A DNA stretch of 64,000 bases from Octopus vulgaris (GCA_951406725.2 OX597818.1:3968001-4032000), one strand, 5' to 3'. Shown: positions 5,976 through 44,488, numbered from the stretch's first letter. Program-made: numbers and translations. Notes: generated from the letters alone by a model not told the origin.

Positions 5976-6929
5976 TCACTACCACTCAGAGTGAAAGGTA
6001 GAATGTACAATGCATATGCCTGAACTGCCATGCTTCATGGCAGTGAAACATGGGCTGTGACCGTGGAGGACATGCGCAGGCTTGAAAGAAATGAAGATAG
6101 CATGATCCGCTGGATGCGTAATGTCAGTGTGCACACATGACAGAGTGTAAGCGCCCTGAGAGAAATGTTGGACATAAGAAACATCAGATGTTGCATGCAT
6201 GAGAGACATTTGCACTGGTATGGTCATTTACTACAGATAGATGAGGAGAGATATGTAAAGAAGTGCCACTCCCAAACAGTTGAAGGAATCCGGGTAGAGG
6301 TAGACCCAGGAAGACATGGTATGAGGTGGTCAAGCATGACCTTCGAATGTTGGGCCTCACAGAGGCAATGTCAAAAGACTGAGATCTCTGGAGATATGCT
6401 GTGACTGTGAAGACCCGGTAAATAAAGTGAGTTCATGGCTGTATCCTACACCAGTTTCACATAACCAGCCCTAGCCCACTCAAAAGTACCTTGGATCGTA
6501 GGGCAAACTGCTGTGCTTGCCTTGGATCATAGGGTGACCTGCTGTGCTTGAGGAGACCTATTGAGGCAAGTACATCAAAACTAAAATCAAATGGAAATTG
6601 TAGCTGTGATCCCCATGCTAGTGGCATGTAAAAAGAACCATCCGAATGTGGCTGATGCCAGCACTGCCTTGACTCTTTTACATGCTGGTGGCACGTAAAA
6701 AGAAGTAACTGATTGTGGTCGTTTCTAGCCTCCTCTGGCCCTTTTGCAGGTGGCATGTAAAAAGTAGCCACTACACTCTCAGAGTGGTTGGCGTTAGGAA
6801 GGGCATCCTGCTGTAGAAACACTGCCAGATAAGACTGGAGCCTGGTGCAGCTTCCTGGCTTCCCAGACCCCAGTCAAACCGTCCAACCCATGTCAGCATG
6901 GAAAATGGACGTTAAACAATGATGATGAT
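5976..6929 (+). mobile_element. 5'-truncated RTE-clade LINE (degenerate RT C-terminus, 3' UTR, (GAT)n tail)
   Basis: Homologous to 34670-35630 (LRVKGR...ETWAVT...RLHWYGH) and ends in GATGATGAT. Confidence 0.85.
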
Positions 6930-6937
6930 AGCGATAT

Positions 6938-7954
6938 ATCATCATCATCATCATCATCATTTAGCATCTGCTTTCCATGCTAGCATGGGTTGGACGGTTC
7001 AACTGGGGACTGGGAAGCCAGAAGGCTGCATCAGGCCCAGTCTGATCTGGCAATGTTTCTACGGCTGGATACCCTTCCTAATGCTAACCACTCCGTGAGT
7101 GTAGTGGATGCTTTTTACGTGCCACCGGCACAGGTGCCAGACGAGTCTGGCAAACGGCCACAATCGGATGATGCTTTTTACGTGCCACCGGCATGGGGGC
7201 CAGTCGGGGCGGCGCTGGCAACGGCCACGTTCGGATGGTTCTCTTATGTGCCACCGGCACTGGTATCTTAGCTGCAATTTCCATTGATGTTGATCGATTT
7301 CGATTCTCATTTGCCTCAACAGGTCTTCACAAGTAGAGTTTTGTGTCCCAAGAAGGAAAGGTATGCATAAGTGGACTGGCTACATCCCGTGTAGAGGCCA
7401 TGGGTTATGGTCTCACTTGTCCTGTCGGGTCTTCTCACGCACAGCATACTTCCATAGGTCTCGGTCTCTAGTCATTTCCTCAGTGAGACCTAAAGTTCGA
7501 AGGTCGTGCTTCACCACCTCGTCCCAGGTTTTCCTGGGTCTACTTCTTCCACAGGTTCCCTCAACCGCTAGGGTGTGGCACTTTTTCACACAACTATCTT
7601 CATCCATTCTCACCACATGACCATACCAGCGCAAACGTCTCTCTTGCACACCACATCTGATGCTTCTTAGGTCCAGCTTTTCTCTCAAGGTACTTACACT
7701 CTGTCGAGTATGAACACTGACGTTACACATCCATCGGAGCATACTGGCTTCATTTCTTGCAAGCTTACACATATCCTCTGCAGTCATGGCCCATGTTTCA
7801 CCACCATGTAGCATGGCTGTTCGTACACACTCATCATACAGTCTGCCTTTTATTCTGAGCGAGAGGCCTTTTGTCACCAGCAGTGGGAAGAGCTCTCTGA
7901 ACTTTGCCCAAGCTATTCTTACTCTAGCAGTTACACTTTCAGCACACCCGCCCC
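6938..7954 (-). mobile_element. 5'-truncated RTE-clade LINE, second subfamily
   Basis: ORF 7413-7976(-) reads GGCAESVTARVRIAWAKFREL...RLRWYGHVVRM...GRSRPRKTW. (CAT)n at 6938-6960. Confidence 0.9.
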
Positions 7955-8896: not shown

Positions 8897-11013
8897 ATGT
8901 ATATATACCCGCTGGATTTTTCTCAGAAAAATATACCTATCCCTGCACGGAAACAATATCTCAAAGGTCTTATAGAGAAAACAGAAGAGTTTATTCGAAG
9001 ATTGAGATGGAAAGCCTTCTTCTTTGATAATAAACAGAAAATAGAAGGAAACAAATATGGATTTAAATCTCCCAGAAACCCGCCACCTATTCCGGAATTA
9101 GAAGCCTTCGAGAAAGACCTTTTCGAGCTTATTAGGAAAATTAAATTCCGCAAATATACCAACGAATTGCAGAAAAATATGAGAGAAAAAATTAAGGAGA
9201 TTAACGACTCGAATAAGATCTTCGTTAATTCTGACAAGACAAGGAACTTATATGCACTTGATAAGGACGTTTATAAGCGCCTGATTTCGAATAGTGTCAC
9301 AGACACATACAAAAAAGACAACATGAATATATACAAAGAGGTGAACTTAGAAGCAAGAGGAATAGCTAACGATCTTAAGATTAGCGATAGGATTGAATAT
9401 CTTTCACCACGACCAGCTTTTATTACTCTGAAAGACCATAAAGCCAATTTTAGTAGAAACCCCAAATGTAGATTGATAAATCCGGCTAAAACTGAGATAG
9501 GAATTATTAGCAAAAATATTTTGGACCGTATTTTAGTTAAGTTAGATAGCGAAGTAGACTTGAGAATTTGGAAGAATAGTAAGTCAGTCATAGAGTGGTT
9601 TAAAGGTATTAGCTATAAGAATAATTGTAGTTTCACACAATTCGACATTATTGACTTTTACCCGTCAATATCTAGGACGTTGCTCCTAAGGGCATTGGAC
9701 TTCGCCAAGCAATATGTCAACATCGATAGCTCGGAAATTGATATTATTATACATGCGAGGAAATCGCTTCTTTTTTTCGAGGATTCCACCTGGATTAAGA
9801 AGACCGAGGATTCTCTTTTCGATGTACCGATGGGGGCATACGACGGGGCTGAGTTATGTATGCTCATAGGAGCCTTTATTCTCCGTAATCTAAAAATAGA
9901 ATTCCCTTTTATAGATGCAGGTTTATATAGGGATGACGGCCTTATAGCCACGCATAATCTAAATGGCCATGAATCAGATAGACTTAGGAAGGACCTCATA
10001 GCTTTCTTTCAAAGGATGGGCTTACGGGTTACGATAGATGCTAACCTGAATAGTGTAGATTTTTTAGATGTAAATTTTAATGTAAGATCAGATAGATTTA
10101 AACCTTTCCGTAAGCCCAATGAAAAGATTCGAACCATCCACCAGTTATCCTTAGGAACTTAGTCAGCAATGTAGGTAGAAGAATATCTTCAATTTCTTCG
10201 GACGAGGCAGCATTCCATAATGCTGCACCTTATTACGATAGCGCATTAAAGAATAGTGGATTCTCTGAGAAGATCCAGTTCAACCAGCTTAATGCTGATA
10301 ATAATGCTGCACGAAGAACTAGGACCAGGAAAGTTTTGTGGTTCAACCCGGCTTTCAATTTGGCCGTAAAGACTAATATAGGTAAGGAATTTTTGAGATT
10401 AGTCTCTAAGCATTTTAAGCAGGGTCATAAATTCTATAGGATTTTTGATAGAAGAACCCTAAAGGTTAGCTATTCTTGTTGCAGAAATTTCGCCTCTTAC
10501 ATTAGCCAACATAATAGGAAGCTAATTGAGATTAGACATGGTGCCGAGCCCATTAAGAAATGCAATTGCAAAAACGAAAGCTCCTGTCCGTTAGAAGGGA
10601 AATGTCTAGTGAAAGGAGTAGTTTATAGAGCCAAGGTGCAAGTGGAAGGCTCATCAGAATACAAGACATACATAGGGGCTTCAGAAAATTCATTTAAAAC
10701 AAGATTTTATTCTCATAAAAATTCATTTAAATACCCAGAGAATAGGAAGAGGACCAGCCTAGCAAAATATGTCTGGGAACTAAAAGAAAAGGAAGCCCCA
10801 CCTTTCAATGTGACATGGAGCATTCTGGACAGGGCGGCACCATACAGGCATGGAGCTTACAAAAATAATTTCAAGTGCAAACTTTGTCTATTAGAAAAAA
10901 TGTACATCTTATTCAAAGACAATAATTCTTTGAATCAAAGAAGTGAGCTAATGAACTTATGTAGGCACGCGGCTAAATTTAAAATGTCGAATATAAATAT
11001 ACCATATGGATAG
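8897..11013 (+). pseudogene. Penelope-like RT plus GIY-YIG endonuclease, interrupted by one small deletion/frameshift near 10131
   Basis: Motifs SDK, FDIIDFYPSI, PMG, YRDD and DFLDV. After the shift, frame 2 reads NHPPVILRNL...WFNP...KVSYSC...CNCx5CPLEGKC...GVVYRA...YIGASE...FKTRFYSH...CKLCLLEK. Confidence 0.9.
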
Positions 11014-21005: not shown

Positions 21006-22072
21006 ATATACAAATAATTGAGATTCAGTTGAATTAGTTACTTAAGTTGAAGCACCAAGTCAGTTCAGTGTTATTCTCACAGCTCGAAGTAAGGTGAATA
21101 AAATGAAAATAAGCAACAGGATGTCAAGTAGTGACACCGTATGACCATTTCAAGCAGCTCCATGTAATTGAACAATGCAATCATTATATCAATTTAAATG
21201 CATTGCCATCATCAACTGCACAGATAAATAAATAGAATTTTAAACAACTGGACACATTAAAATAATTTTTCTCAAATACTTTAACAGAACAAGATGGAAG
21301 AAGTTCATGTTGTCACTACTGTAGCTAAGAATAGACTACACTTCCAAGAATGGCATGAAGCCCACTGGGGTCATAGCTTGTAAAGGATTGTGGTTCATTT
21401 CTAATTCATTTGTCTCTATATCTAAGACTTGAGAACTGTGTCTGTTTAGAATGAAGGGCAAGATTGAGTTGACTGCTTATGGCTCAGTGTGGTCATAAAT
21501 ATTACCATATGTATCCCTTTTCCTCAGGGAGGAAAGAAGACATTAGGATATATAGTGACTTGGATATAGAGCTACTGTCTATAAAAGGAGGCTGGGTAGG
21601 GGAAGACTCTAAATCCTGATGTTAATTACCAGTTAAAGGGGCAAGATGCTAATAAAACTTAGGATGTTAATACAGACGAAATTTTACCTTGGGGTACTAG
21701 GGGTGATTGTTTATAAACAATATTGTTATGTTGTATTAAAATAAAATTTAAGATTTTCAAAAATGATATCATAACCAAAATAGGTAAAATGTGTGCATAC
21801 ATTAAAAAGGAAAGATTACATAGAACAATTTTAATGTTGTACTTAACTAATTACTTATTAGGTAGTTTCTATAAAGACTGCTCAGGACATTTACCTATGG
21901 AATACTTGAAAGATAAATATATTATCTATATATTAATTATAAGCCAAGAATGAGAAAAAAATAAAGATGTGTACAGATACACAAACATATTACACAAACA
22001 TATACACAACAACAACAGCAACAACAAAATCAACCACAACCAGAGCAACAGCAGCAACAACAACAACACCAA

Positions 22073-22699
22073 TTGACCAGTGCGGTTCTTGCAGAACTGC
22101 AACAATCGATCTGTGCTTTAAAAGGGGAAGTAGCAGGAATAAAAGCAACCATTCAGGTTGGACTCCACAATGAGGGGTCTTATCGGAATGCTCTGCTAAA
22201 GAACCTCCCTGTACCTGTACCTCTTGTCGCATTTAAGACCGCGGATTCTGCCACCCATGAAGTCATTGCCATTGGGGTGCCAGAAGACATGGCTGATCTT
22301 CAGGCTTTTGCTGCCAACTCAGCCAAAGACCTAGGCTGCGTTCCCCCAACGGGTGCTATCCGCCTTGGACGACCTGGCCCAAAACCTAGGCTCATCAAGT
22401 TGTCTTTTACGGACCCCACTGAGGCAACCTCTTACCATCTGGCCTCAGTTAAAGCTGGGCGGGAAAATCGGACCACCTTCCGAACACGCCCAGGCTTACC
22501 GTCCGATGTACGCCCAAAGCTACGTGTAGTGGCTTCCCTGAATAGGAACTCAGCTCTACAGGAAAGCTTCAGTCTTCGGGAAGATGGACAAATCTGGAGA
22601 TTTGTCAAGACTGCTGAAACGTGGAAGAGAGATACCAGCTGGTCTGAGTGCTCTCTACCCACAATAACTAAAAAAACTACAGCAACTCAGGGAAACTAA
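22073..22699 (+). CDS. LINE ORF1 protein (probably 5'-truncated)
   Basis: Coiled-coil-like N-terminus and IGVPE...IRLGRPGPKPRLIKLSF RRM-like motifs typical of LINE ORF1. No ATG start. Confidence 0.7.
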   Translation: MTSAVLAELQQSICALKGEVAGIKATIQVGLHNEGSYRNALLKNLPVPVPLVAFKTADSATHEVIAIGVPEDMADLQAFAANSAKDLGCVPPTGAIRLGRPGPKPRLIKLSFTDPTEATSYHLASVKAGRENRTTFRTRPGLPSDVRPKLRVVASLNRNSALQESFSLREDGQIWRFVKTAETWKRDTSWSECSLPTITKKTTATQGN

Positions 22700-25520
22700 G
22701 CCAGAACAACCTGCCATCCTCTACACACCATCATAAACTGCGAGCAGGGTACAAATTGTTGTCCTTAAATGCTCGCAGTTTATGCAACAAAATACATTTG
22801 TTCAACGCCTACGTCAGAAGTGTTGACCCTGACTTCATCACTGTCACGGAAACATGGGCGCATTCCTTACTCTGTGATGGGGTTTTCAACATTACGGGGT
22901 ACAACCTCTTCCGTAAGGACCGCACTAACCGCCGTGGTGGTGGTGTGATGGTCTACGTTCGTTCAAATTTTTTGGTAATTCCTTGTGCCGATTTGAACGA
23001 ATCACAAGAAGAAGTTTTTTTCTGTGACGTGCGTATGACCATGTCAACACTCCTGCTTGGCGTTGTTTATCGTCCCCCAAGTTACCATCGGGACACACAG
23101 CTTTGCAATGTCCTCCGAGCTGCTGCCAGGAAAACAGCCACTTATGTGTTTATTGCAGGCGATTTCAATCATCCTGAGATCGATTGGGAGACCTTCCATT
23201 GGCCACAGAGTGCAAACGATTTTGTTGAGCTTGTGCTGGACTCAAACTGGTCACAAGTAGTCACCTCTCCAACAAGAGGCGACAACACCTTGGACCTGCT
23301 CTTCACCACAACTCCTGAAGCGGTTATCAATTGCACTACGGAGGAACCTCTAGGTGACTCTGATCATGCTATGATCATCGCCAATCTGGCTCTTGCGGGC
23401 AACAAAAACCTGAACCATCTCCAATCTGCTTCCTTCGATTGGAAGAGAGCAGATTGGAACCTGTACCACACTGAACTACAGCACCCAAACTGGCGTGAAT
23501 TCTACAACTCTGGAGATGTGAATACTATACTCCAGAGTATCCTGGACTCAATATGGGCAGCATGTGCAGCATCAGTGCCACGTAAACAAAAAAAGAAGAA
23601 CCGCCCCAAAAGGGCAATTTGGGAAACTTCAGCGGTCCGACTTGCCAGGAGGGAACGTCGGACTGCTGAACGGGAATACAGGTTGCATAAATCAGACACC
23701 AACAGGAAGAAGCGGAATAAATCCTCCAACCATCTCAAGCAAGTGACAAAAAATGCAGTGCTTGAATTTGAACAGTGCATAGCAGCCAATCCTGACAGCA
23801 AGGTTTTCTGGAAATATGTGCACTCAAAGCAGAGACCTCACTCTCCAGTGGGCCCTCTTCGCAACCCTCACACAAACCAGATCACTGACGACCCCAAGGA
23901 ATGCGCAGAACTCATTGCCGAGTGCTATGCAAACATATTCACTGTTGAAAGTCAAAATGTACCATCTTCACCATCACTAACAGCAAACTCCATAACAACT
24001 ATGGAATTTACACCTGCAATGCTGCGACGTCACCTTCAAAATAAGCGCAACTATGCCTCCCCTGGTCTCGATGGAGTTACATACCTGCTTCTCAAACGTG
24101 GCAGGCACTTCCTTTTACACCAGCTTTCTATTTTCTTCCAGTACTGTCTCAACAATGGTGCTACTCCGGAGCAGTGGAAAACTGCCAGTGTCATTCCTCT
24201 GTTCAAAAAGGGCGACCGCACATCACCTGTCAACTATCGCCCAGTCAGTCTCACTAGCTGTATTGCAAAACTGATGGAATCGTGTGTCAGAGAAACACTC
24301 TGGAACTTCTGGAGCTCTCACAGTCTCATCCGACCCTCACAATATGGATTTGTCCCTAACTCCAGCTGCAGTGACCAGCTTGTCGAGTTCCTTGAGGACA
24401 TTACTCAGATTACTGACAGTGGCTCATGGGTGGATGTTGTCTACCTTGACTTTGCTAAGGCTTTCAACTCTGTGCCACACAAAAGGCTTATGGTGAAACT
24501 CTCTGCAATGGGTGTGGGGGATGACCTTTTTAACTGGTTGAAATCCTTCATCCTCAGCCGAAAGGAGGTAGTCACAGTTCTAGGACAGCACTCTACACCA
24601 TATGAGATGTCATCGGGTGTACCACAGGGATCTGTCCTTGGCCCCCTCTTGTTTGTGGCATACATTAACGACATAGATGCCAATTTAAAGAATGCCACAG
24701 TATTGAAATATGCAGACGACATCAAGCTGTACCTTGAAATCAAGAGGACAGATCCTGATGTCTACAACTCTTTCCTGCAATCAGACCTAGACACAATGCA
24801 GCAATGGATCACAGACTGGCAACTGAAACTGGCTGTGGACAAGTGTACCACCATGCATTTTGGGAGAAAAAACCCTGCGTTCACATACTCCCTCCACAAC
24901 ACTGATATCAAGAAATCCTCTTGCGAGCGTGACCTAGGCATCACTGTCAGCAGTGATTTGCGTTGGTCAAAGCATATCTCTAAGATTGTCAGGAAGGCCG
25001 AGGGTGTCTTGGCATCACTCAGCAGGTCTTTTGTTAGCCGCTCTCCAGCCATCTATTTAAAACTGTATACAGCTATGGTACGACCACACTTGGAATTCGC
25101 ATCATCAGTTTGGAACCCCTATCTTGCACAGAACATTGACCTCCTGGAATCTGTCCAGAGACGTGCAACCAAACGCATACCCTCCATCAGACACCTACCA
25201 TATTCTGAGCGCCTTGTTTCCCTGGGCATGGATTCACTGAAGCTCCGGCGTTTGGCGACGGACTTGGTAACACCCACAAAGTTATCAACCACCTCACCAA
25301 CAACAACACTGAACACCTTTTTGATCTCCATGTGTCTAACACACGTGGACATGCCTACAAAGTCAGAAAACAATACAGCTCCCATGACTTTCGGAAACAT
25401 TTTTTCACGCTCAGAGTTGCTGAAGCATGGAATAAACTGCCTGCGTCAGTTGTTGACTGCCATGACACTGCATCTTTTAAGGCCCTCATGCTTTCCGAAA
25501 TCCGCCGAAACTTCACCTGA
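22672..25520 (+). pseudogene. LINE ORF2 (AP endonuclease plus reverse transcriptase) with a single frameshift near 25270
   Basis: NARSL, VTETW, GDFN, SDH; YLDFAKAF, GVPQGSVLGPLLF, YADD. The true C-terminus TRGH...FFTLRVAEAWNKLP lies in another frame ending at 25520. Confidence 0.9.
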
Positions 25521-25601
25521 TTATATATACACTTTAGATGAGTTGTAGTGCACCTGAGCACTGTACACAATTATTATTATTATTATTATTAACATATGTG
25601 T

Positions 25602-31019: not shown

Positions 31020-34000
31020 GAAGCGATGTCCAAAGCGAGCTAAGAATTACTCATTTCATTTCTTCCAACCCCTCGTACTACATTCGCCGCTAACACTTAA
31101 ATGTCTGAATCTATTCACTAACTGCTTGTTTGTTTTCTTTTCTTTCATGAGCTAACTGTTGATATTGTTCCCCACAAAATATAATCTTTTAATTTTTAAC
31201 CCTATCTCGTAAAGCTTATGTGATAATTATTCGTCCCTGTATGAAGTTAATTTGTTCGTTACTCTATGATATATTCTTCAAACCCTGATTGCTTAATTCT
31301 TCTCATTCCTGTCCCCAATCACACTTTGCCATTCACAGTGTGCCCGCCCTTTCCCGCCCCCACCACCAATACCGGATAACACTATGTTTACACCATCTAC
31401 ACCGGATATCCCTTCTCCCACCACCATTACGCGTGTCTATTCCTCCAACCCCTCCTCTTCAATATGCTATTTCACTATGTATTACCCCTGCCCCTCTTCC
31501 CTAAGACAGAAGCAGCTAGCGCCGCTGCTCATCAACCGTCCCACTTAACCAGTTATCTTACGTTTCCTTCTGTTTTGAAATCTGTCACTGCCTCAACTGG
31601 CCATCTCCTTCCAGTCCCTTCCCTCACTCGTGATATCCTACGTTTCATTCTGTCTAGAACCTGCCACCACCCCTACCTGTCATCGTTTCTCCTAACCCCC
31701 CTCCCCACTGGTGGTCCCCTATATTACCTGCACTCTCTTCCCCCACTTTCTCTGCTGGAACCCTTCCCCACCGCAATGCAACCAATTTTTTCAGCTGGAC
31801 CCCCTCCCCAACCCTAGAATATCCATGTTTCTGCTACGCTGCTTAAACTATGTTACTCAATGACCATAATGCTTGCTTAGAATGCTACTAACACCTAGAA
31901 TATCAGTATGACCTTAATGCTTATGCTTACAACGCTGCTAACACCAGCTCCTGCCGACGGCAGGGGCCACAACCTTAACATGCCTAAATGCTTGAATGTT
32001 GTCAGGTCGGAAGAGAGATCAGATGAAAAATGCGTAAAAAACGATCACCACCACATCACCCGCTCTTCTTTTCAGGCGCTGAATTGCACCCCTCCCCTAC
32101 ACATTACCTTCCCAGTTTTCAGAGTTGGCACTGTCAATGTTGGTACACTGAAAAGTAGGTCTAGTGAGATTGTAGAGATGCTTGAGAGAAGACGGGTTGA
32201 TGTATGCTGCATACAAGAGGTAAGATGGAAAGGAGCTTCAGCTAGGGTCCTCACAGGCAAGGCACATAGGTATAAAGTCTTCTGGCAAGGTAACATGGAT
32301 GGTGTAGGGGGTGTAGGCATTCTCCTTGCGGAGAAATGGGTGGATAAGGTCATAGAGGTTGTCAGGGTTTGCGATAGAGTGCTTAAGCTCAGGTTAGTCC
32401 TACAGAGTGGCACAGCTACGATTATCTCCGCCTATGCCCCACATGCGGGCTACCAAATGATCAGAAGGACTACTTTTATGATACCCTTCTACAGGCTACC
32501 TCAAAGATGAGTGGCAAGGACCTCATCTTTGTGGGTGGAGATTTTAATGGGCATGTTGGGCGGGAATCGGGTATCTTCACTGGGGTACACAGTGGCCATG
32601 GTATTGGCACCAGAAATGATGAGGGAACTAGACTACTGGAATTCTGTGATGCATGTAACCTCTTAATCTGCAACACTAACTTCAGGAAGCCTGACTGCCA
32701 CCTTATAACCTATCAGTCAGGAGACTCCGCTAGCCAAATAGACTTCATCCTCACCAGACAGCAGGGTGCAGGGTTGCTCTTAAATACAAAGACCCTCCCG
32801 GGTGAAGAATGTACGCCTCAGCTTAGGCTAGTCATTAGTGACTTTAGGCTTGAGGCCAGAAGGATTCCAAGAAACAGACCAATCCAGAAAAGAAGGATTT
32901 GGAAGCTGAAGAACCCTTCACAAGGTCAGAGATTTAGGGACATCCTCATCAAGAAATTTGATGAGAGGGAGGAGGATCTACAGACGTCGGACATAGAAGG
33001 TAGCTGGAAATTCCTACAGGTCATCTTGCTGAGTGCCACAGACCAAGTCTGTGGATGGTGCAAAGTCCCTTCCAGACCTAGAGTTACGTGGTGGTGGAAT
33101 AGTGCAGTAGACAAAGCCATTAGTGCAAAGAAACAGGCCTGGAGGGATGGGGGTAGCAGGGAACTGTACCAGGTAGTCAAAAGGGAGGCTGGGCGGCAGG
33201 TATACATAGCCAAAGATGTAGCAGAAAAGAAGAAGTTTGCCAATGTCCAGCGACATGAGGACCAAATAACTAAGGTATTTCGGATTGCTAGACAGTGTGT
33301 GAGAGAAATAGTGATGTTCCAGGAGAGAAATGTGTCCACATGGATGATGGTGAAAAGAAAGAGGCTTGGAGAAGCCATTATGAAAGACTGCTGAATGTGG
33401 AGAATGAATGGGAGGAGGAGAGCCTGCCAAATGTTGACCCAGTAGAGGGCCCAGCTATCCGAATAGACAGCTCCCTTGTAGTTAAAGCAATTAAGGGTAT
33501 GAAACCAGGTAAAATCCCCGGCCCATCACGAATCACTGCTGAGATGCTTAAAACAGCTGGTTATGTGGGCTATGGCCTAGTCACCTGCATTGTAAACCAG
33601 GTAGTTCATAATGGAGTCACACCCAATGACTGGCGTAGCAGCACCATAGTCAACTGCTACAAGGGTAAGGGTGATGCTCAAGATAGAAATAACTACAGGG
33701 GTATTAAACTGTTGGATCAGGTGATGAAGTTCTCAGAGAGGGTCATAACCCATCTCATTAGGGAGAGAATTTGCTTAGATGAGATGCAGTTCAGTTTTGT
33801 GCCGGGTAAAAGCACCACTGATGCTATATTCCTGGTCCGACAACTGCAGGAGAAGTACCTAGCTAAAGATAAACCCCTCTACATAGCTATTGTGGACTTG
33901 GAGAAAGACTTTGACAGGGTCCCCCGATCCCTTATCTGGTGGTCGATGTGGAAACTGGAGATTGATGAATGGCTAATAAGGGCTGTACAGGCCCTATACA

Positions 34001-35630
34001 GAGAGGCTGTCAGCAAGGTTAGAATTGGCAACGAATATAGTGAAGAATTCCGGGTAGAAGTAGGTGTACACCAAGGCTCAGCCCTCAGTCCCCTTTTATT
34101 CATCATAGTCCGCCAGGCAATAACAGAGGAATTCAAAACAGGTTGCCCCTGGGAGCTCCTCTGTGCTGATGACCTGGCTCTCATAGCAGAATCATTACCG
34201 GAACTAGAAAAGAAATTTCGGGTGTGGAAGCATGGGTTAGAATCAAAGGGCCTTAGAGTAAATGTAGCAAAGACCAAAGTTATAGTAAGCAGAAAGGCGA
34301 ACTCAGCACACACACCCTCGGGCAGGTGGCCCTGCTCGATCTGTAGGATAGGTGTAGGTAGAAACTCCATAAGGTGTACCCAGTGTAAGCTATGGACGCA
34401 TAAGAGGTGCAGCAACATCAAAGGGAAATTAACTGATAAGATAGCTTTCATGTGCGGCAGATGCACAGGGACAATACACAGCACAGATACTCAGAAAACA
34501 GATTCCATCATACTCCAGGGGGAGAAACTAAAAGTAGTTGATAGTTTCCGCTACCTCGGTGACCAAGTTAGTAGTGGAGGTGGATGCTCAGAGAGTGTCA
34601 CCACTAGAATACGAATAGCCTGGGCAAAGTTTAGAAAGCTCCTACCCCTACTGGTGACAAAGGGTCTCTCACTCAGAGTGAAAGGTAGATTGTATGATGC
34701 ATGTGTGCGAACTGCCATGCCTCACGGTAGTGAAACATGGGCTGTGACTGCAGAGGACATGCGTAGACTTGAAAGAAATGAAGCTAGCATGATCCGCTGG
34801 ATGTGTAATGTCAGTGTGCATGCACGACAGAGGGTAAGCACCCTGAGAGAAATGCTGGACATAACAAGCATCAGATGTGGTGTCCAAGAGCGACGCTTGC
34901 GATGGTATGGTCATGTACTGTGGATGGATGAGGAGAGCTGTGTGAAGAAGTGCCACTCCCAAACAGTTGAAGGTATCAGGGGGAGAGGTAGACCCAAGAA
35001 GACATGGGATGAGGTAGTCAAGCATGACCTCAGAGCGTTGGGCCTCACAGAGGCAATGACGAAGGACCAAGATCTCTGGATATATGCTGTGACTGCAAAG
35101 ACCGGGGCTGCTTCCTGCACCAGTCCCGCATAGCCCCAGCCCATTCAAAGTTCCTTGGATTTCAGAACATCCCGCTGTGCTTGAGGAGACCTATTAAGTC
35201 AAGTAAATGAACTTCGAAATAAATATCAATGGAAATAGTAGTTGTGATACCTGTGCTGGTGGCACATAAAAAGCACCATCCGAACGTGGCCGATGCCAGC
35301 ACCGCCTCGACTGGCTTCTGTGCCGATGGCACAGAAAAAGCACCATCCGAACGTGGCTGATGCCAGCACCGCCTCGACTGGCTTCTGTGCCAGTGGCACG
35401 TTAAAACCACCTACCGATCGTGGCCGATGCCAGATTCCCCTGGCACCTGTGCCGGTGGCACGTAAAAAGCACCCACTACACTTGCGGAATGGTTGGCGTT
35501 AGGAAGGGCATCCAGCTGTAGAAACACTGCCAGATCAGACTGGAGCCTGGTGCAGCCCCTGGCTTCCCAGACCCCGGTCAAACCGTCCAACCCGTGCTAG
35601 CGCGGAAAACGGACGTTAAACGATGATGAT
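31020..35630 (+). mobile_element. Near full-length RTE-clade LINE
   Basis: C-rich 5' region, APE-RT ORF, 3' UTR with ~60-bp repeats and a (GAT)n tail. The 5' boundary is approximate. Confidence 0.85.
32108..35133 (+). pseudogene. RTE ORF (AP endonuclease, RT, internal PHD-like finger) with frameshifts near 32445 and 33310
   Basis: GTVNVGTL, CIQEVRW, GDFNGHVG, QIDF; VDLEKDFDRV, GVHQGSALSPLLF, CADD (mutated YADD), RLRWYGHV, GRGRPKKTW. Confidence 0.9.
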
Positions 35631-35777: not shown

Positions 35778-35956
35778 ATATATACATATACATATATATA
35801 TATACATGTATATATATACATATATATATATACATGTATATATATACATATATATATATGTATATGTATATATATATACATGTATATATACATGTATATA
35901 TATACATGTATATATACATGTATATATATATACATATACATATATATACATACATA

Positions 35957-36493
35957 TGTAGTGGATGCGTGGATGTATTAATAAATACATAAGTTGTTTT
36001 GTAATAAATTAAAGATTTATTTTCACTACATCAATTTGTAAGCAATGCTACACATCGCTTGTACAAAAATGCATATTAAATAATGCTTGCAAATAATCCA
36101 TATTAAAGAATGCATAATACATGGTACATATTAAAGAAGAATATGTTTGATGGTGTGTGTGTGTGTGAGTAAATCATGCAGGACAATCACCTTTATGAAT
36201 ATTCTCTCGTCGTCTCCATAAATGCGTGGCGTTCTCTTAAGCGTTGGTTCTGGTTCTCTGCAGATACCTATTTCTCCGTTCTATTTATAAAATCTCAAAT
36301 AGCCAGAAAAATAGATATATCGCAAGAGAGTTATCGTTAAAGTAGGTCGCTGGTCGTTCCGTTAAACTTCGCCTGACCTGCTCAGGTCAGAGGTCGAAGG
36401 GAGACGATCCATCATTTTTTGTCAGAACAAAGAGATTCTGATTTGGCGCCTTTTTGTGCATTGTGCTTAGAGAAGGAAGTGCTAATTCTTACA
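35957..36493 (-). repeat. Gypsy 3' LTR
   Basis: Near-identical to 41199-41289 plus 44002-44488. Preceded on the minus strand by the PPT AGAAGGGGGGTAG (36494-36506). Confidence 0.95.
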
Positions 36494-37093
36494 CTACCCC
36501 CCTTCTAGTGAGAAAGCCACAGAGATCGAACGATATTTGAAATGTATTATTATTATTATTTTAATTTTTTTTTTTTTGATTGTGTGCATGCAGAAAAAAA
36601 AAATTTTTTTACACATTGAACGATAAAAATATGCATGAAAGGTTTACAATTTGTATGCGCTATATGGTGGGCAATACGTATATGTGCCCAGGCAGAATTA
36701 TGTTGGCGCGTTGAAAGAGATGTGCGTCTATTGATTACTCGACCTACTAGAGGTCTAATAGAGACAAGGTATCTTTCAGTGGCGAAAAAAAAATCGAGTG
36801 ATAGCACGCATGAGAACAAGATTTGTAAATGTGTGTGGATATACAGTTAGCAAAAATATACTTATGAGAAAGCAAAACATTTTGAAGAGAAAACAAAAAA
36901 TATGTACATGCAAAAATGAAAGAAATGTTCATCAGCAAAGTTCGATTTTGAAATGTTCCGTAAAAGTTCATACAGACAGTTTTTTGTTTTCATTTTTTTC
37001 TTTCTTTACGTACACAAATGTTCTTTGATTTCTCTGGGTGGGTGATGCAGTTATGTGTTCATTAGGAAGATGGATACGTTAGGAGTTCAGAAC

Positions 37094-40000
37094 TTACCCG
37101 AAAAACTTGCACAAACCTTGCTGGCCATCGAACTGTTCTTCCTGATTTGGTGTGTCGGGGTTGTGCAGAATCTGTGGTGTTCGCTGGAGCTGCCGAGTCT
37201 GTTTGAGGAAAAGAGGGGACTGAATGTAAGTCCTCCTCGATGAAAGCTTTTTTAAACGATCAAGCGAGACCGTATTTCGTTTACCTCCAATATCGAGGAC
37301 GAAATACTTGGGTTCTCTTTTGATGACCTTGTAGGGCCCGGAATATGGTGGTCGAAGTTGAGAGGGTATCCCATCATTCCTCACGAAGACATGAGTCCAT
37401 GTGTTGATCTCTTTTGGGACACGTGAAACGACGTTCTGTTGTCTGGGGCCTGAAGGTGATAACTGCGACATGGATGTCCGTAATCGGTGCACATATTGTT
37501 GTGGGTCAGGGAAGTTTTGTGAAACAGGTTCGATCATCTGCCCAGGTAAGGTGAGTGTTGTGCCATAAACGAGTTCGGCCGGAGTATATCCCAGTTCTTC
37601 CTTAATCGTGGATCGAATTCCATGGAGGATGAGAGGGAGATGTTCCAACCAGTGAGAACTGTCTGGAGCTGCTTTTATAGATGCCTTGAGTTGGCGGTGA
37701 AAGCGTTCGACCATGCCATTTGCTGCAGGGTGCTAAGCTGTAGTGCGGGTGTGTTTACACCCGAGGAGACGAGTCAGCTCGGTGAAAAGGTGGGAATCGA
37801 ACTGACGTCCTCTGTCGGTGGTAATTGTTGCGGGTGTGCCAAAACACGAAACCCATTGTGATATCAGCGTTTTAGCGACCGTTTCTGCTGATATATCAGA
37901 TAAGGGCCAGGCTTCAGGCCATCGCGAGAACCTATCTACGCAAGTTAGCAAATATGAATAGTTCTGCGAAGGTGGCAGGGGTCCAACGATATCAATGTGA
38001 ACGTGCTGAAATCGTGCGTCGGGCTGCGAAAATGAACCGATTGGTGATTTTATGTGCCGGTGGAATTTCGCTTTTCGGCACGCAACACAGCACTTGGTCC
38101 ATTCTCTGATATCCTTGTTGATACTGGTCCACACAAAACGGGTCGATATTAGCTTTTGAGTGGAGCGAATACCAGGATGTGACAGAGAATGTAGAGCGGA
38201 GAAAACTTCTCGACGATATTTCTGTGGTACATAAGGGCGTTGGTAACCAGTGGAAATATCACACCAAATATGGGATGTGGATGATGGTAGCGGAACATGC
38301 TGAAATTTCAGAGATGACGAATTCCGGAGCTTTAAAAGTTCTTCGTCATTCTCCTGGTCAGCTGCTATACGTGCCAGATCAATTGTAGACGTGGTGTGGA
38401 TAGCATTGATCTGCGCACGTGAAAGTGCATCGGCTGCCACGTTGGTCGTCCATTTGATGTGGCGTATATCCGTCGTGTACTGCGATATGAAGTCGAGGTG
38501 GCGGATTTCTCTCGGCGAGTGGCGATCCGGTTTGGTGTTAAATGCATATACTAATAGCTTGTGGTCGGTGTATATGGCAAAATTGGTACCTTCTAGCATA
38601 TGACGGAAATGCTTAACGGCCAGGTATGCCGCTAATAATTCCTGACTGAATGTGCTGTATTTGGTTTCCGCGGGTTTTAACCGCTTAGAAAAGAAAGACA
38701 ACGGTTGCCATATACCGTCAACAAGCTGCTGTAGTACACCTCCAACTCCGGAATCGGATGCATCAACGAGTAAACATCGTGGGGCGTCTGGTTTTGGATA
38801 AACCAACATGGTAGCGCTAGATAACGCTTTTTTCAGGGCAGCGAAAGAAACGAGTTGATCTTCGGTCAGAGCTATATCTGCATTTTTGCAGGTTCGCTGA
38901 CGTAGCAAATCCGTGAGCGGTTGCGCTATTTCAGCGAGGTGGGGCACGAACCGTCGATAGAAATTCGCTAGACCGAGATATTCCCTTAATTTGCGGAGAG
39001 ATGTGGGTGGTGGAAAATCCACGATGGCCTTGACTTTCTCGGGAAGGGGACGAATTCCATTTTTATCGACTATATGGCCGAGAAAATGAAGGAAAGCAAC
39101 TCCGAACAAACATTTAGTAGGGTTGATAACAACACCAAATTGACGTAAGGCGTTCGAATAGCAGGTGAAGGTGTTGGTTATGTTCTTCGTCCGAGTTACT
39201 GGCCACGAGTATGTCGTCTATGTAGGCATAGACGAAAGGCAAACCTCTAGTCACCATGTCGATAAACCTTTGGAATGTCTGTGCCGCGTTTCGTAAACCG
39301 AAAGGCATACGCAAGAATTCAAACATTCCGAAAGGTGTAGTAACTGCTGTCTTTGAGATGTCTGCAGGTTCCACTGGGATTTGGTTGTATGCTCGCACCA
39401 GGTCGATTTTGGAAAAGATGCAAGCTCCATGCAGCGAGCTCGAAAAGTCTTGAAGAAAAGGCACCGGATAGGCATCACTGATAGTGCTTTTATTCAGCGA
39501 TCGATAATCGCCGCAAACCCGCCAATCGGTCGATGATTTTTTTGGGACGCAGTGTATCGGCGAGGACCAGTTGCTGCTGGAAGGGCGGATGATTCCGAGG
39601 TCGAGCATGTGCTGGAATTCCCGCTTGACGGCCTGGAGACGATCAGGTGGTAACCTTCTGGGCCTTGCAGCAACAGGTGGACCGCTGGTTTTGATGTGGT
39701 GGGTAACGTCGTGTTTTATCGGCTGATTATGAAAAACTGGTCGCGCGACATCTGGATATTCATTCAGGATGGAACTGTGACGAGTCGTTGTCGTAAGCAT
39801 TACAGTTGGGCTGACTGTGTCCATTCGAGCGGCTATACCGCGCACAGTAAGCTTGGTGGTGGTGTCGACAAGTCGTCTGTTCTTTATGTCTACCAGGAGA
39901 CCGAAATGATGCAAGAAATCGGCTCCTAAGATAGGGGTCGGCAGTTTAGCGACGATGAATACCCACTGAAATGTTCGGCGTAGTCCTATGTTTAATGTTA

Positions 40001-40229
40001 GGGACTGTTCACCGTAGGTTGGAATGGGTGAATGGTTGACTGCCTGAAGACAGACTGATGTCTCTTTTCTTTTTCCAGAAGTGTTGGAGACTGGGATGAT
40101 GCTGACTTCCGCACCGGTGTCAACCAGGAAACGCGTGCCTGTTACACGATCGCAAACGAAAAACAGGCGACTGTGTGGGTGCGAACCAGGAACTTCCGTC
40201 GCGTTCAATTCCTGGCTGTGCCGTTTCCC
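37094..40229 (-). pseudogene. Gypsy pol (protease, RT, RNase H, integrase) with a frameshift near 39140, an in-frame TAG at 37733 and a C-terminal frameshift
   Basis: FLVDTGA, RVCGDYR, KIDL, MPFGL, YIDD, VDASD, TDH, HHCC zinc finger, HIDIVGP, TDRGRQF, NGMVER, GPYKV. Confidence 0.93.
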
Positions 40230-41080
40230 GAACTGGGTGAGGAAAACGAGCACGGTACCGTACATTTTTGTGCCCGTGTTCCGAATGTTCGGTGGTACCA
40301 ACACGTGTCATGTGAGTTGCGGGTAGCACTGGGGCTTCGGGACCGTCTGCCATCTCGTCGAGATCGGCTGGTGCTTCGACGCTGGGGACTAAACTTTAGG
40401 GCTTGTATTTGGGCTGTGAGGATTTGTATTTGCGCAGCTTGCTGCGTCATTAATGCACACAAATCCGAAATCTCGGAAGAACTGGTTTGTGCACGGAAAG
40501 GATTGGTACTGGGAGCGGCTGGCGTCACTGTCGATACCGTTGGATATTTGTGCGGTACTTCGGCTATTTTGTCAGCTAGCTCCGCCAGTTCTTCAAGGGA
40601 TGTGTTTTCTCTGGTAGACGCGAGAACAACCTGGGTATTGGAGGGCAGACGCTGGAGAAAAAGTTGCTTGAAAATTTTTTCTGGGAGCGTCTCATCTCCG
40701 AGAAGCTGTTTCATTCTCCGAAGAAGCTGGGACGGCGTTTTGTCACCCAATTCTTCCGATATCAGAAGCTGGTGAAGTCTTTTTTGTTGGGATTCTGAGG
40801 TTCTGTTTATTAACGTGGTTTTAAAAACTTCATATGAAACAGAACCGGGTGGTGCCATGATAAGGTCACGTATTACGTTCGTTATTTCTGGTGACAGAGA
40901 ACCGATAACGTGAGAAAGTCGAGCCGCATCGCTCAATATTCTGTGAGAGGCAAACTGTGCCTCTATATGGTGAAACCACAATGTCGGGTCGTGGGTCCAG
41001 AATGGTGGAATTTTTAACGAGATCGCCGCTTGGAATGCCATGTCGATGTTGGCCGCTGGATTTTGTTCCGGGAGATTCAT
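40205..41080 (-). CDS. Gypsy gag (291 aa)
   Basis: Intact ATG-to-stop ORF with KIPPFW...WF...[24 protein letters not shown] and a CWYHRTFG...C...C knuckle. Confidence 0.92.
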
Positions 41081-41185
41081 TGTTTTCGTCGGTATTTTCA
41101 GTTGCTTCGTTGCTGGTGATGTGCAAACTGTAATTCTTCGACGCGGTTGATGAAGCTGGTTCCGGGGAAGGCGCGATTCGTTTTA

Positions 41186-41196
41186 CGGGGTCACCA
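41186..41196 (-). promoter_or_regulatory. Primer-binding site complementary to tRNA-Trp
   Basis: TGGTGACCCCG starts 2 nt after the 5' LTR and matches the conserved metazoan tRNA-Trp 3' end ...CGGGGUCACCA. Confidence 0.8.
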
Positions 41197-41198
41197 AA

Positions 41199-44100
41199 TG
41201 TAGTGGATGCGTGGATGTATTAATAAATACATAAGTTGTTTTGTAATAAATTAAAGATTTATTTTCACTACATCAATTTGTAAGCAATGTGTAACGTCAG
41301 TGTGAATATCTTCTCTGGACCTTTTGGGGGTGCGAGAAGCAATCACTTTCCGTTGCTTTAATATCCAGATTCTCTACCAGTCAGAAACAACAAGACGCAG
41401 ACGTAAAATATATATATCTACTTTATTCTCTTATGACAGTAACAAATAAGTGGTATATCTGGGTATCCCTTTGGTATAGATGTATCAGAGCTGAACGTTA
41501 TCGCTGTAGAATTTACAAAGTTCAAATGCTAACGACACTGGTCAAAGATGGCGTCCAGAACAGGGAGATGATGTTGTCTGCAACAATTTGGTTAAAGCCT
41601 TCGGCCGACTGCTATCAAAAATGGACAGCGAGAAAATATACGTCCGTTGCCTTCGGTCGCTTTGTCTCAAGTCAGTGACTGCTGCTGGACGCTAGTGGTC
41701 AACGTCCTACGATCCCCCTGCCTCGGCTAACTGCCACGTAGGCAAATGGTCCTACTTCCGGTGCTTCGCGCATGCGCGAGAGGGCCCCTCCTCTCTGCCT
41801 TGGTGAAAGCACCAACACCGCACGCGCGAAATAGAAATGGACGGTGCGCGTGCGCGCACCGTTATATAGGATCACTACAGAGCTCCGCCCCAGTGCGAAG
41901 CACGACACAAAATTCCCTGTAGTGACTATAAAACTCAAGGTGGATACCAGATAACCAAATAGCACACAATATAATAAAAATGGCAAAATTTACAACATAC
42001 ACAAGAAATTTACCAAAGGGGAAAAAAGAGAAAAAATACTCAAAATGAGCAAAATCAAAGTGCATGCGTGAAGGTGGATACGTCACAAAGTATAGAGCCT
42101 TCCACTGTAGGGAAGCAAAACTCACAGTTAATGAACCTAGGCGAAATTAAATCCAACTCCTCTAAAGGTGGTTGATCCTGCGAAATAGCAGTTAAATCAA
42201 TTGCTGCAGGAGAGGAAATGGAACCGACAGATAGATCGCCAGTAAGACAAAAGGCGACAGTGCAAGCATGCTGGTGTGATGCGCGACACAGATAATTTTC
42301 TCTGTTAATTACGTGACCAACAGGGGTCTAACAGGGAAAAATTTACGCCTATACATGGCGCAGCGCATGTGAACATCCGACATCTATGAGTCGGGAAAAT
42401 AATTAGGCTAACGCAAAACGTGTTGCAAAAACAAGGCAAGTACACGTGCGGAGCAAAGGCGCATGAAATGCAATAGGGCTTGCCAGACCGAAAAAACAGC
42501 AATGAATATGCCAGTGGTTGAGCGATTATATGCCTCGTTCGTACAGGACCAAAAGTATGGCATGCCGGCGCGTTATAATGGACAAACAACCCTCTCTATG
42601 TATACGTGACCCCTAGGGTCTATAGAAATGAGGTGTGTCCACAAAAGGCAAATTTAGCATGGAAAAAACAAGCGAGTAAAGCATGTGTGACGTATGTATG
42701 TGAGAGAGATAGCATTTATGTGTGTGTACGTGTGTGCAACAAAAATACAACAAGGTGAATGCGAGCAAAAATAAAAATACAGCGCATAGAAAAAGTCTCT
42801 CAGGGCTATTTCAGACAATGGAGTTAATTTACCAGTCTCTAATAGCCTGATGCACAATAGCAGTTCGTTTTGTAACAGAATGTTGAAATCACAAATGCAG
42901 ATGCCGATTGAACACATATCGTGTACCGGTTGTAGCTTCGATGCTGTGACAGGTTAACTGGAACAGAAGAATCTCGCAGATAGTGCTGGGCTGTTAATTC
43001 CTTGGTGTGCCATGCACAAACAGCAAGTGGGCTAAACTTCCGCGAGTTGCTATTTACATCTTGTTGTGTCGACGGTGTTGAAGGCGACTGGTGGTGGAGG
43101 CGACTGTGGTGTGGACTTGAGACAACATTGTTCTTAGTGGTGATGGCGACGAAGATAACGACGACGTGAAGTTCTAAGACGACGATGATGATGACGAAGG
43201 CAGAGAAAAAGCATCGATGATATGATGGCGTCCGTCATTATGTTGAAGAATAAAAAAGGCTCCTTCTATAACTGTCCGAGGGGACCGGAAACAAATCGTC
43301 GAAAGATGATGACTGCGTAGAGTTAAATCGTGTTCCGACCTGGCAGAAAAACTGGATTTCTTTGTTGTTAAGTGATCTCTGGTTTTAGACCAGAATCACG
43401 TCGGGGTCACCAGTGTAACGTCAGTGTGAATATCTTCTCTGGACCTTTTGGGGGTGCGAGAAGCAATCACTTTCCCTTGCTTTAATATCCAGATTCTCTA
43501 CCAGTCAGAAACAACAAGACGCAGACGTAAAATATATATATCTACTTTATTCTCTTATGACAGTAACAAATAAGTGGTATATCTGGGTATCCCTTTGGTA
43601 TAGATGTGTCAGAGCTGAACGTTATCGCTGTAGAATTTACAAAGTTCAAATGCTAACGACACTGGTCAAAGATGGCGTCCGGAACAGGGAGATGATGTTG
43701 TCTGCAACAATTTGGTTAAAGCCTTCGGCCGACTGCTATCAAAAATGGACAGCGAGAAAATATACGCCCGTTGCCTTCGGTCGCTTTGTCTCAAGTCAAT
43801 GACTGCTGCTGGACGCTAGTGGTCAACGTCCTACGATCCCCCTGCCTCGGCTAACTGCCACGTAGACAAATGGTCCTACTTCCGGTGCTTCGCGCATGCG
43901 CGAGAGGGCCCCTCCTCTCTGCCTTGGTGAAGGCACCAACACCGCACGCGCGAAATAGAAATGGACGGTGCGCGTACCGTTATATAGGATCACTACAAAT
44001 GCTACACATCGCTTGTACAAAATGCATATTAAATAATGCTTGCAAATAATACATATTAAAGAATGCATAATACATGGTACATATTAAAGAAGAATATGTT

Positions 44101-44488
44101 TGATGGTGTGTGTGTGTGTGAGTAAATCAAGCAGGACAATCACCTTTATGAATATTCTCTCGTCGTCTCCATAAATGCGTGGCGTTCTCTTAAGCGTTGG
44201 TTCTGGTTCTCTGCAGATACCTATTTCTCCGTTCTATTTATAAAATCTCAAATAGCCAGAAAAATAGATATATCGCAAGAGAGTTATCGTTAAAGTAGGT
44301 CGCTGGTCGTTCCGTCAAACTTCGCCTGACCTGCTCAGGTCAGAGGTCGAAGGGAGACGATCCATCATTTTTTGTCAGAACAAAGAGATTCTGATTTGGC
44401 GCCTTTTTGTGCATTGGTATTTGCCGACCAATGATTCTTGGATTTGATTTCGAATCCAAGCTTAGAGAAGGAAGTGCTAATTCTTACA
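41199..44488 (-). repeat. Gypsy 5' LTR (41199-41289 plus 44002-44488) split by a nested insertion
   Basis: The sequence AGCAATG|CTACACATCG of the 3' LTR is interrupted here. This copy also carries ~42 bp (about 44417-44459) that is absent from the 3' LTR. Confidence 0.93.
41290..43997 (-). mobile_element. Non-autonomous LTR retroelement (LARD/TRIM-like) with TSD AATG
   Basis: LTRs at 41290-41879 and 43414-43997 (TGTAAC...ACTACA) are nearly identical. PBS at 43394-43412 equals AATCACGTCGGGGTCACCA. The 1.5-kb interior has no long ORF. AATG at 41286-89 and 43998-44001. Confidence 0.92.

Follow-up and report, generated by a model that had tools for sequence, protein, structure and literature searches.

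A putative programmed -1 frameshift site between ORF1 and ORF2 of a probable CR1-type LINE from Octopus vulgaris

The LINE copy and its proteins

The 64-kb stretch of Octopus vulgaris DNA analysed here (the window) carries a 3.6-kb LINE at about 22000-25590 on the plus strand, the features of which are collected in Table 1. As expected of an APE-type non-LTR element, it combines an APE endonuclease with a reverse transcriptase (RT), no terminal repeats (LTRs) were found around it, it ends in a 3' simple-repeat tail and it is truncated at its 5' end. The three Pfam matches of ORF2 are all above their cut-offs, and its best solved relative is L1 ORF2p. At the ORF2 C-terminus, motifs that we take to be of CR1 type are present and those that we take to be of L2 type are absent; the element likely belongs to the CR1 type. 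Searches with blastn and tblastn found no further copy of it inside the 64-kb window.

Table 1. Coordinates of the features of the LINE copy and of the Gypsy site used for comparison
Feature	Position	Strand	Remarks
Candidate 5' target-site duplication AACATAT	21997-22003, also 21984-90	+	7-nt match to 25591-97
ORF1 frame, 5'-truncated	21965-22699	+	Poly-Gln, coiled coil, RRM, C-terminal domain; L1 ORF1p-like, type II (from a structural model)
A7 run at start of ORF overlap	22670-22676	+	Possible indel site
ORF2, APE endonuclease and reverse transcriptase, CR1-type C-terminus	22672-25520	+	Pfam PF03372, PF14529, PF00078
Slippery heptamer G GGA AAC	22690-22696	+	In ORF1 phase; ORF1 stop TAA (22697-99) directly after
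In-frame CTG, A at -3	22711-22713	+	11 nt past ORF1 stop; candidate near-cognate start for reinitiation
Strong hairpin over endonuclease motif I	22732-22784	+	15-bp perfect outer stem
Small stem-loop AGTGC/GCACT at LINE 3' end	25547-62	+	Read from sequence
(ATT)7 tail	25570-90	+	Read from sequence
Gypsy comparison site TCG GGA AAC	40205-40229	-	gag stop five codons later

The 3' partner of the candidate target-site duplication directly adjoins the LINE tail, and AACATAT may mark the 5' end of the truncated copy, a call that is tentative because the flanks are of low complexity. ORF1 is without its start and without the N-terminal part present in its relative P0021 (58% identical to the window ORF1), which has about 195 extra N-terminal residues, Cys-rich by eye and with no Pfam match. 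The ORF2 reading frame runs uninterrupted from 22672 to 25548, with a frame break near 25262-25270 past which the last ~83 homologous codons (stop 25518-20) sit in another frame; this break is absent from relatives and thus specific to the copy.

The closest match of ORF1 is an Octopus vulgaris gene model (82-83% identity), and Pfam gave no family match for the window ORF1. Its AlphaFold model has a mean pLDDT of 85, with the tail predicted to be disordered, and the top 10 Foldseek matches of this model are all human LINE-1 ORF1p (best E 3e-5). With coiled coil, RRM and C-terminal domain (CTD), as in L1 ORF1p and in the type II ORF1s of CR1 and L2, the modelled protein would count as type II under the classification of PMC4120745, at low global TM-scores (about 0.3). 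There, the type II ORF1s of CR1 and L2 comprise IIA and IIC, the latter with an N-terminal PHD (CR1 subgroup 5, L2 subgroup 6); weak PHD matches were obtained in 3 of 57 members of the present ORF1 family. The parts of PMC4120745 covered here describe no frameshift.

The ORF1/ORF2 junction and the tails of homologous ORF1s

ORF1 ends in ACT CAG GGA AAC TAA and thereby contains, as a preliminary description of this DNA had claimed, a G GGA AAC heptamer in the X XXY YYZ phase of ORF1. The same description had assigned ORF2 to the -1 frame, with the frame open from 22672 onwards, and had noted the lack of an ORF2 ATG before the first endonuclease motif; both points hold, the motif (LLSLNARSL) occupying codons 29-37 and the first in-frame ATG lying at 22948 (codon 93). 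A start at this ATG would cost ORF2 its first endonuclease motifs, since the Pfam match begins at residue 31. The two ORFs share 28 nt, and the -1 frame across the heptamer reads TCA GGG AAA CTA. Two elements of a -1 cassette are therefore present, a phased X XXY YYZ and an open downstream ORF in the -1 frame, the latter in one copy only.

G_GGA_AAC and A_AAA_AAC rank among the most shift-prone heptamers (PMC5009743). A phased classical heptamer is expected by chance in 0.2-0.7% of cases at the last position of the overlap and in 1.3-4.7% at any of its 7 phased positions; because of this latter figure, a single copy is insufficient, and the heptamer taken alone is suggestive but not decisive. 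The window's Gypsy element shares the phased heptamer (40229-40223, minus strand), as the earlier account had also stated, there with a predicted 11-bp stem 5 nt past the heptamer (z -1.6 to -1.8).

As for RNA structure downstream of the LINE heptamer, a CCTGC/GCAGG stem had been suggested. The two motifs are present at 22710-14 and 22744-48, but the stem itself found no support: the region 22697-22760, when folded, is no more stable than its shuffles (z +0.61), and the helix has only 5 bp, begins 13 nt past the heptamer and is incompatible with a 15-bp hairpin that uses G22744-A22746. The perfect outer stem of this hairpin (22732-46/22770-84, z -4.2 to -5.3) begins 35 nt 3' of the heptamer, which is too distant for a classical stimulator, the usual spacer being 5-9 nt (PMC5009743). 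It may be unconnected with recoding, because other windows along the LINE fold as strongly or more so (4 of 178 have a lower z, down to -8). In Rfam, its sole match was a weak generic hairpin (21 bits vs. a cut-off of 100). Back-translation of P0002, the closest full-length ORF2 (57%), allows a 13-bp stem, which 10 of 60 shuffles also reach; in eight other ORF2s, none was clearly above the null (best 4/60).

At 5-9 nt past the heptamer, where a canonical cassette has a stem-loop or pseudoknot, helix enumeration (rather than a dedicated pseudoknot program) returned only weak helices of -4 kcal/mol or weaker. Because no such structure was found there, the junction is not filed as a canonical cassette, although it would work like a -1 cassette. 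Two more strong hairpins lie in ORF2 between endonuclease and RT (23420-23458 and 23628-23670, z about -8). A possible 12-bp long-range pairing joins 22715-22726, starting 18 nt past the heptamer, to 24512-24523 in the RT region (-18 kcal/mol, calculated with no null).

Conservation was analysed on proteins. A length-unrestricted search of 1.84 billion protein representatives with ORF1 gave 63 matches, of which 56 were kept for counting and 7 without the C-terminal Trp motif (truncated, chimeric or unrelated) were dropped. The homologues are divergent, with a median core identity of about 38% over 300 sampled pairs. An enlarged set included six more proteins from a profile search, the profile of which included the motif; here, 62 of 71 matches were kept and 9 without the Trp motif dropped. 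A single-sequence word search yielded one match among 259 candidates and the ESM Atlas leads only (scores 0.88-0.90). Four loci from a motif scan of prokaryotic genomes were discarded as chance, the resemblance being confined to the motif; another scan gave none.

The dipeptide Gly-Asn, encoded in the window by the heptamer, occurs in the tail past the last conserved Trp in 41 of the 56 homologues, the remaining tails having Lys-Asn (6), Gly-Lys (2), Glu-Asn (6) or none of these (1). Within-tail shuffles (10,000) gave a mean of 6.4 and a maximum of 16 tails with Gly-Asn, and the dipeptide rate of the protein body predicts 1.6, the related sequences not being fully independent. In the enlarged set, Gly-Asn (46), Lys-Asn or Gly-Lys (3) is found in 54 of 62 tails (shuffle mean 13, maximum 25), Glu-Asn in 7 and none in one. 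Gly-Asn had been predicted beforehand by the heptamer, and Lys-Asn and Gly-Lys follow from the heptamer rule, being the peptides encoded by other slippery heptamers; Glu-Asn is a post-hoc class, which would correspond to a non-canonical G GAA AAC or to decay. At this site, P0090 has Glu where its near relative P0043 has Gly, one base apart if the Gly codon is GGA or GGG. Search bias is minor: of the 63 best stretches, only 2 extend as far as the Gly-Asn of the query. Among ORF2 C-termini, Gly-Asn was found in 1 of 19.

Around the dipeptide, the tails are otherwise unalignable. Its position floats from 3 to 36 residues after the Trp and from 0 to 19 residues before the ORF1 end, so that neither the spacing of the motif nor the end of ORF1 is fixed across homologues; the three closest complete ORF1s (P0021, P0022 and P0023) end in Gly-Asn-stop, like the window ORF1. 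The residue preceding Gly-Asn is never N, D, H, Y, C, F or I (0/41, P 1e-4 to 4e-4). These residues, whose codons cannot end in G, make up 17-20% of the tails. Likewise, all six Lys-Asn are preceded by residues with codons that may have A as their last base, which the heptamer A AAA AAC would require. On a quick version of the tree, Lys-Asn requires four changes, of which well-supported branches force at least two. Ser and Gln are enriched before Gly-Asn (P 8e-8 and 2e-4, respectively), and a 5' bias has been reported for -1 sites (PMC5009743). What is conserved across relatives is the peptide (41/56, proteins having been compared), and the signal appears to be common to the whole ORF1 family rather than confined to the window copy. 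A TURBS-like UGGGA motif was considered and rejected: among the 41 residues before Gly-Asn, a codon ending in TG is possible for one only (a Val), and phase is not required of a TURBS.

A single fused ORF, which the preliminary description had named as evidence against its proposal, was not encountered at the protein level: no full ORF1-ORF2 fusion is present among the 71 ORF1 matches, and none of the 19 ORF2 matches has an ORF1 domain. In the 63-match set, 62 proteins are 120-412 aa long and the other is a 2242-aa protein aligned in short stretches. Only P0088, a Capitella teleta gene model, includes endonuclease sequence among the 71: it belongs to the ORF1 family, is without the tail and runs into an endonuclease closest to L2-type proteins, presumably where the gene predictor bridged a frame change. 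It shows that the same ORF1 precedes an APE ORF2 in an annelid too. P0002 carries an open extension of 59 residues, for which a start has been called and in which the G-K-[LPHQR] or K-K-[LPHQR] signature expected of a -1 frame was not found; it begins Met-Ile, which would fit an AUGA start-stop overlap.

The ORF1 family thus occurs with an L2-like endonuclease in P0088 and with a CR1-type ORF2 in the window, which suggests that the ORF1 module has moved between lineages, consistent with ORF1 exchange.

Translation of ORF2

The frameshifting proposed by the preliminary description is supported by Gly-Asn in 41 of 56 divergent ORF1s and by substitutions that fit other slippery heptamers. The best explanation, to which we give a probability of about three in four, is that ORF2p synthesis in this CR1-type LINE lineage depends on programmed -1 frameshifting. 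Translation would usually terminate at TAA and yield ORF1p, while a minority of ribosomes would slip back one base on G GGA AAC, with Gly-tRNA in the P site and Asn-tRNA in the A site. Such slippage would be tandem, -1 and of low efficiency. The next codon would be CTA (22696-98), followed by a linker of ~20 residues, the endonuclease and the reverse transcriptase. A pause at the adjacent stop perhaps helps slippage; pea enation mosaic virus is a case where a stop located 3 nt downstream plays a role (PMC5009743). A low frameshift rate would suit a LINE, because little ORF2p is needed (PMC3894237). No protease or 2A motif is present in the element and, for this reason, the fusion would stay whole; its predicted length is about 1,350 residues, of which about 40 would form a disordered linker. 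It could join ORF1p oligomers via the coiled coil, as Gag-Pol joins Gag. Among the points against this interpretation are that no near stimulator was found, that the -1 relation is seen in one copy, itself with another frame break, and that the extension of P0002 is without the expected -1 signature.

Termination-reinitiation, which we consider unlikely, would have ribosomes stop at TAA and restart, aided by the hairpin, either at CUG 22711 or at an AUG that the window copy no longer has, the mode of ORF2 translation in SART1 and mammalian L1. Like the window LINE, SART1 and mammalian L1 are bicistronic; SART1 requires RNA structure downstream of its ORF1 stop (PMC3894237; PMC10275272), and L1 ORF2 initiation is considered AUG-independent (PMC5009743). 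The CTG is in a favourable context, with A at -3, and lies 18 nt before the hairpin, and P0002 has a called start, although with no Met at the position of the CTG. Unlike SART1 and L1, the window LINE has overlapping frames, a conserved slippery peptide, no AUG and no stop-start overlap: its stop context is TAAGC rather than the UAAUG of SART1-type coupling, with no in-frame ATG before 22948. Reinitiation also leaves unexplained the phased Gly-Asn of 41 of 56 ORF1s and its Lys-Asn and Gly-Lys substitutes, and in most tails with any of these three dipeptides the stop is 1-19 codons further on. It could coexist with frameshifting.

It is improbable that Gly-Asn is instead a short protein motif of the ORF1p tail, for binding, cleavage or degradation, with the heptamer as a by-product. 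The comparison covered proteins only, Ser-Gly-Asn is the commonest form (25/46) and the tail is predicted to be disordered, as is common for linear motifs. Against this, Lys or Glu stands in for Gly and Lys for Asn, residues that differ chemically while their codons (GGA/AAA/GAA and AAC/AAA) are close. Moreover, the dipeptide ends the protein in some members but lies inside the tail in others, and the sole DNA example has precisely the heptamer G GGA AAC, with the -1 frame open across it.

Very improbable is a family with one fused ORF, with the window copy lacking one base through mutation or assembly error, the A7 run (22670-76) being one possible place. The run is present and the copy has a similar break near 25262-70; yet three independent close homologues stop right after Gly-Asn, for which reason the frame offset is not taken for an A7 lesion, 62 of 63 matches are 120-412 aa long and 0 of 19 ORF2 matches have an ORF1 domain. 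Polymerase slippage at A7 was also rejected because the tails of the closest homologues are without Lys-Lys. Finally, it is scarcely credible that Gly-Asn reflects a 5' splice donor (CAG|GTAA) joining ORF1 to ORF2 by splicing, as the Ser, Gln, Pro and Ala before Gly (which fit MAG|GT) and the joining of both parts in P0088 might suggest, given that the window copy reads GGA there, with GT absent, that a canonical GTAAG would yield Gly-Lys while tails are Gly-Asn in 46 cases vs. Gly-Lys in 3, and that spliced RNA would reinsert as a fused ORF, of which none was found.

The junction read as a frameshift site resembles retroviral gag-pro, Ty3/Gypsy gag-pol and PEG10, where a phased G_GGA_AAC likewise lies near the end of an RNA-binding structural ORF; the enzyme ORF is also in the -1 frame, and the Ser-Gly-Asn-Gly peptide of the window's Gypsy occurs in many LINE ORF1s too. 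It differs from these cassettes in that the LINE is a non-LTR element, has no fusion-cutting protease and has no 3' stimulator found at 5-9 nt.

The TRE elements of Dictyostelium belong to a different, L1-like clade. For the non-LTR elements TRE5-A and TRE3-A, a figure legend in a review states that a -1 frameshift is required for ORF2, the statement giving no heptamer or test (PMC5911963). Recoding has also been proposed for the gag of Drosophila HeT-A (PMC5009743) and, as a +1 shift or reinitiation, for Paramecium LINEs (PMC5405496); HeT-A shifts inside gag and has no RT, and the Paramecium case is +1 and drawn from consensus sequences.

The mechanism is thus already known in retroviruses and LTR elements and asserted for slime-mould LINEs. 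For LINE ORF2, the options given in the relevant parts of reviews are reinitiation, stop-start coupling, IRES and 2A, and the part of PMC3894237 that discusses ORF2 mechanisms includes no frameshift; the term 'frameshift' has 0 occurrences in the available text of a CR1 survey (PMC13343379, 2026). In the literature searched, no report of a slippery site in animal CR1 or L2 elements was found, and no animal LINE lineage with a conserved heptamer signature of retroviral type; an earlier mention, for example in subscription papers, Repbase Reports or supplements, may exist.

On balance, we lean slightly towards a broader view, namely that a widespread and unrecognised animal LINE lineage (in octopus, an annelid and dozens of other hosts, with CR1- or L2-type ORF2s) relies on -1 frameshifting of the retroviral type to produce its RT, which would remain part of an uncleaved ORF1p-ORF2p fusion; the signal would travel with a swappable ORF1 module and act with no classical 3' stimulator. 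If true, animal LINEs with the conserved -1 site would join those elements that use the Gag-Pol solution, the site could account physically for cis-preference and for a constant ORF1p:ORF2p ratio, and endonuclease and RT would be shown to function with ORF1p attached. It would also provide dozens of natural cassettes, possibly with a type of stimulator other than a near stem-loop.

Other elements of the window

The Gypsy element extends over 35953-44416, with its coding part at 37094-41182 on the minus strand, and is young, its LTR parts being 99% identical. Its pol is no longer intact, with a frame change near 39114-39217 and a stop at 37733-35. A 2.7-kb insert, likely a nested LTR element, interrupts the upstream LTR at ~41289 and carries direct repeats of 590 bp (41289-41879/43413-43997, 97.8% identical).

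At 8897-11013 (+), two overlapping ORFs of 421 and 296 aa with a -1 offset and no Pfam match resemble what we take to be a Penelope-type RT and a GIY-YIG endonuclease. No slippery heptamer was found in their overlap, and for this reason the offset is probably a lesion. A fragmented LINE at 31899-35133 (+), presumably RTE-like, has APE and RT; its RT core is followed by a PHD-like zinc finger (E 7e-4), and fragments related to the LINE are scattered across the window. Lastly, a 1.9-kb imperfect palindrome (73%) at 5985-7859 consists of inverted copies of a dispersed repeat.
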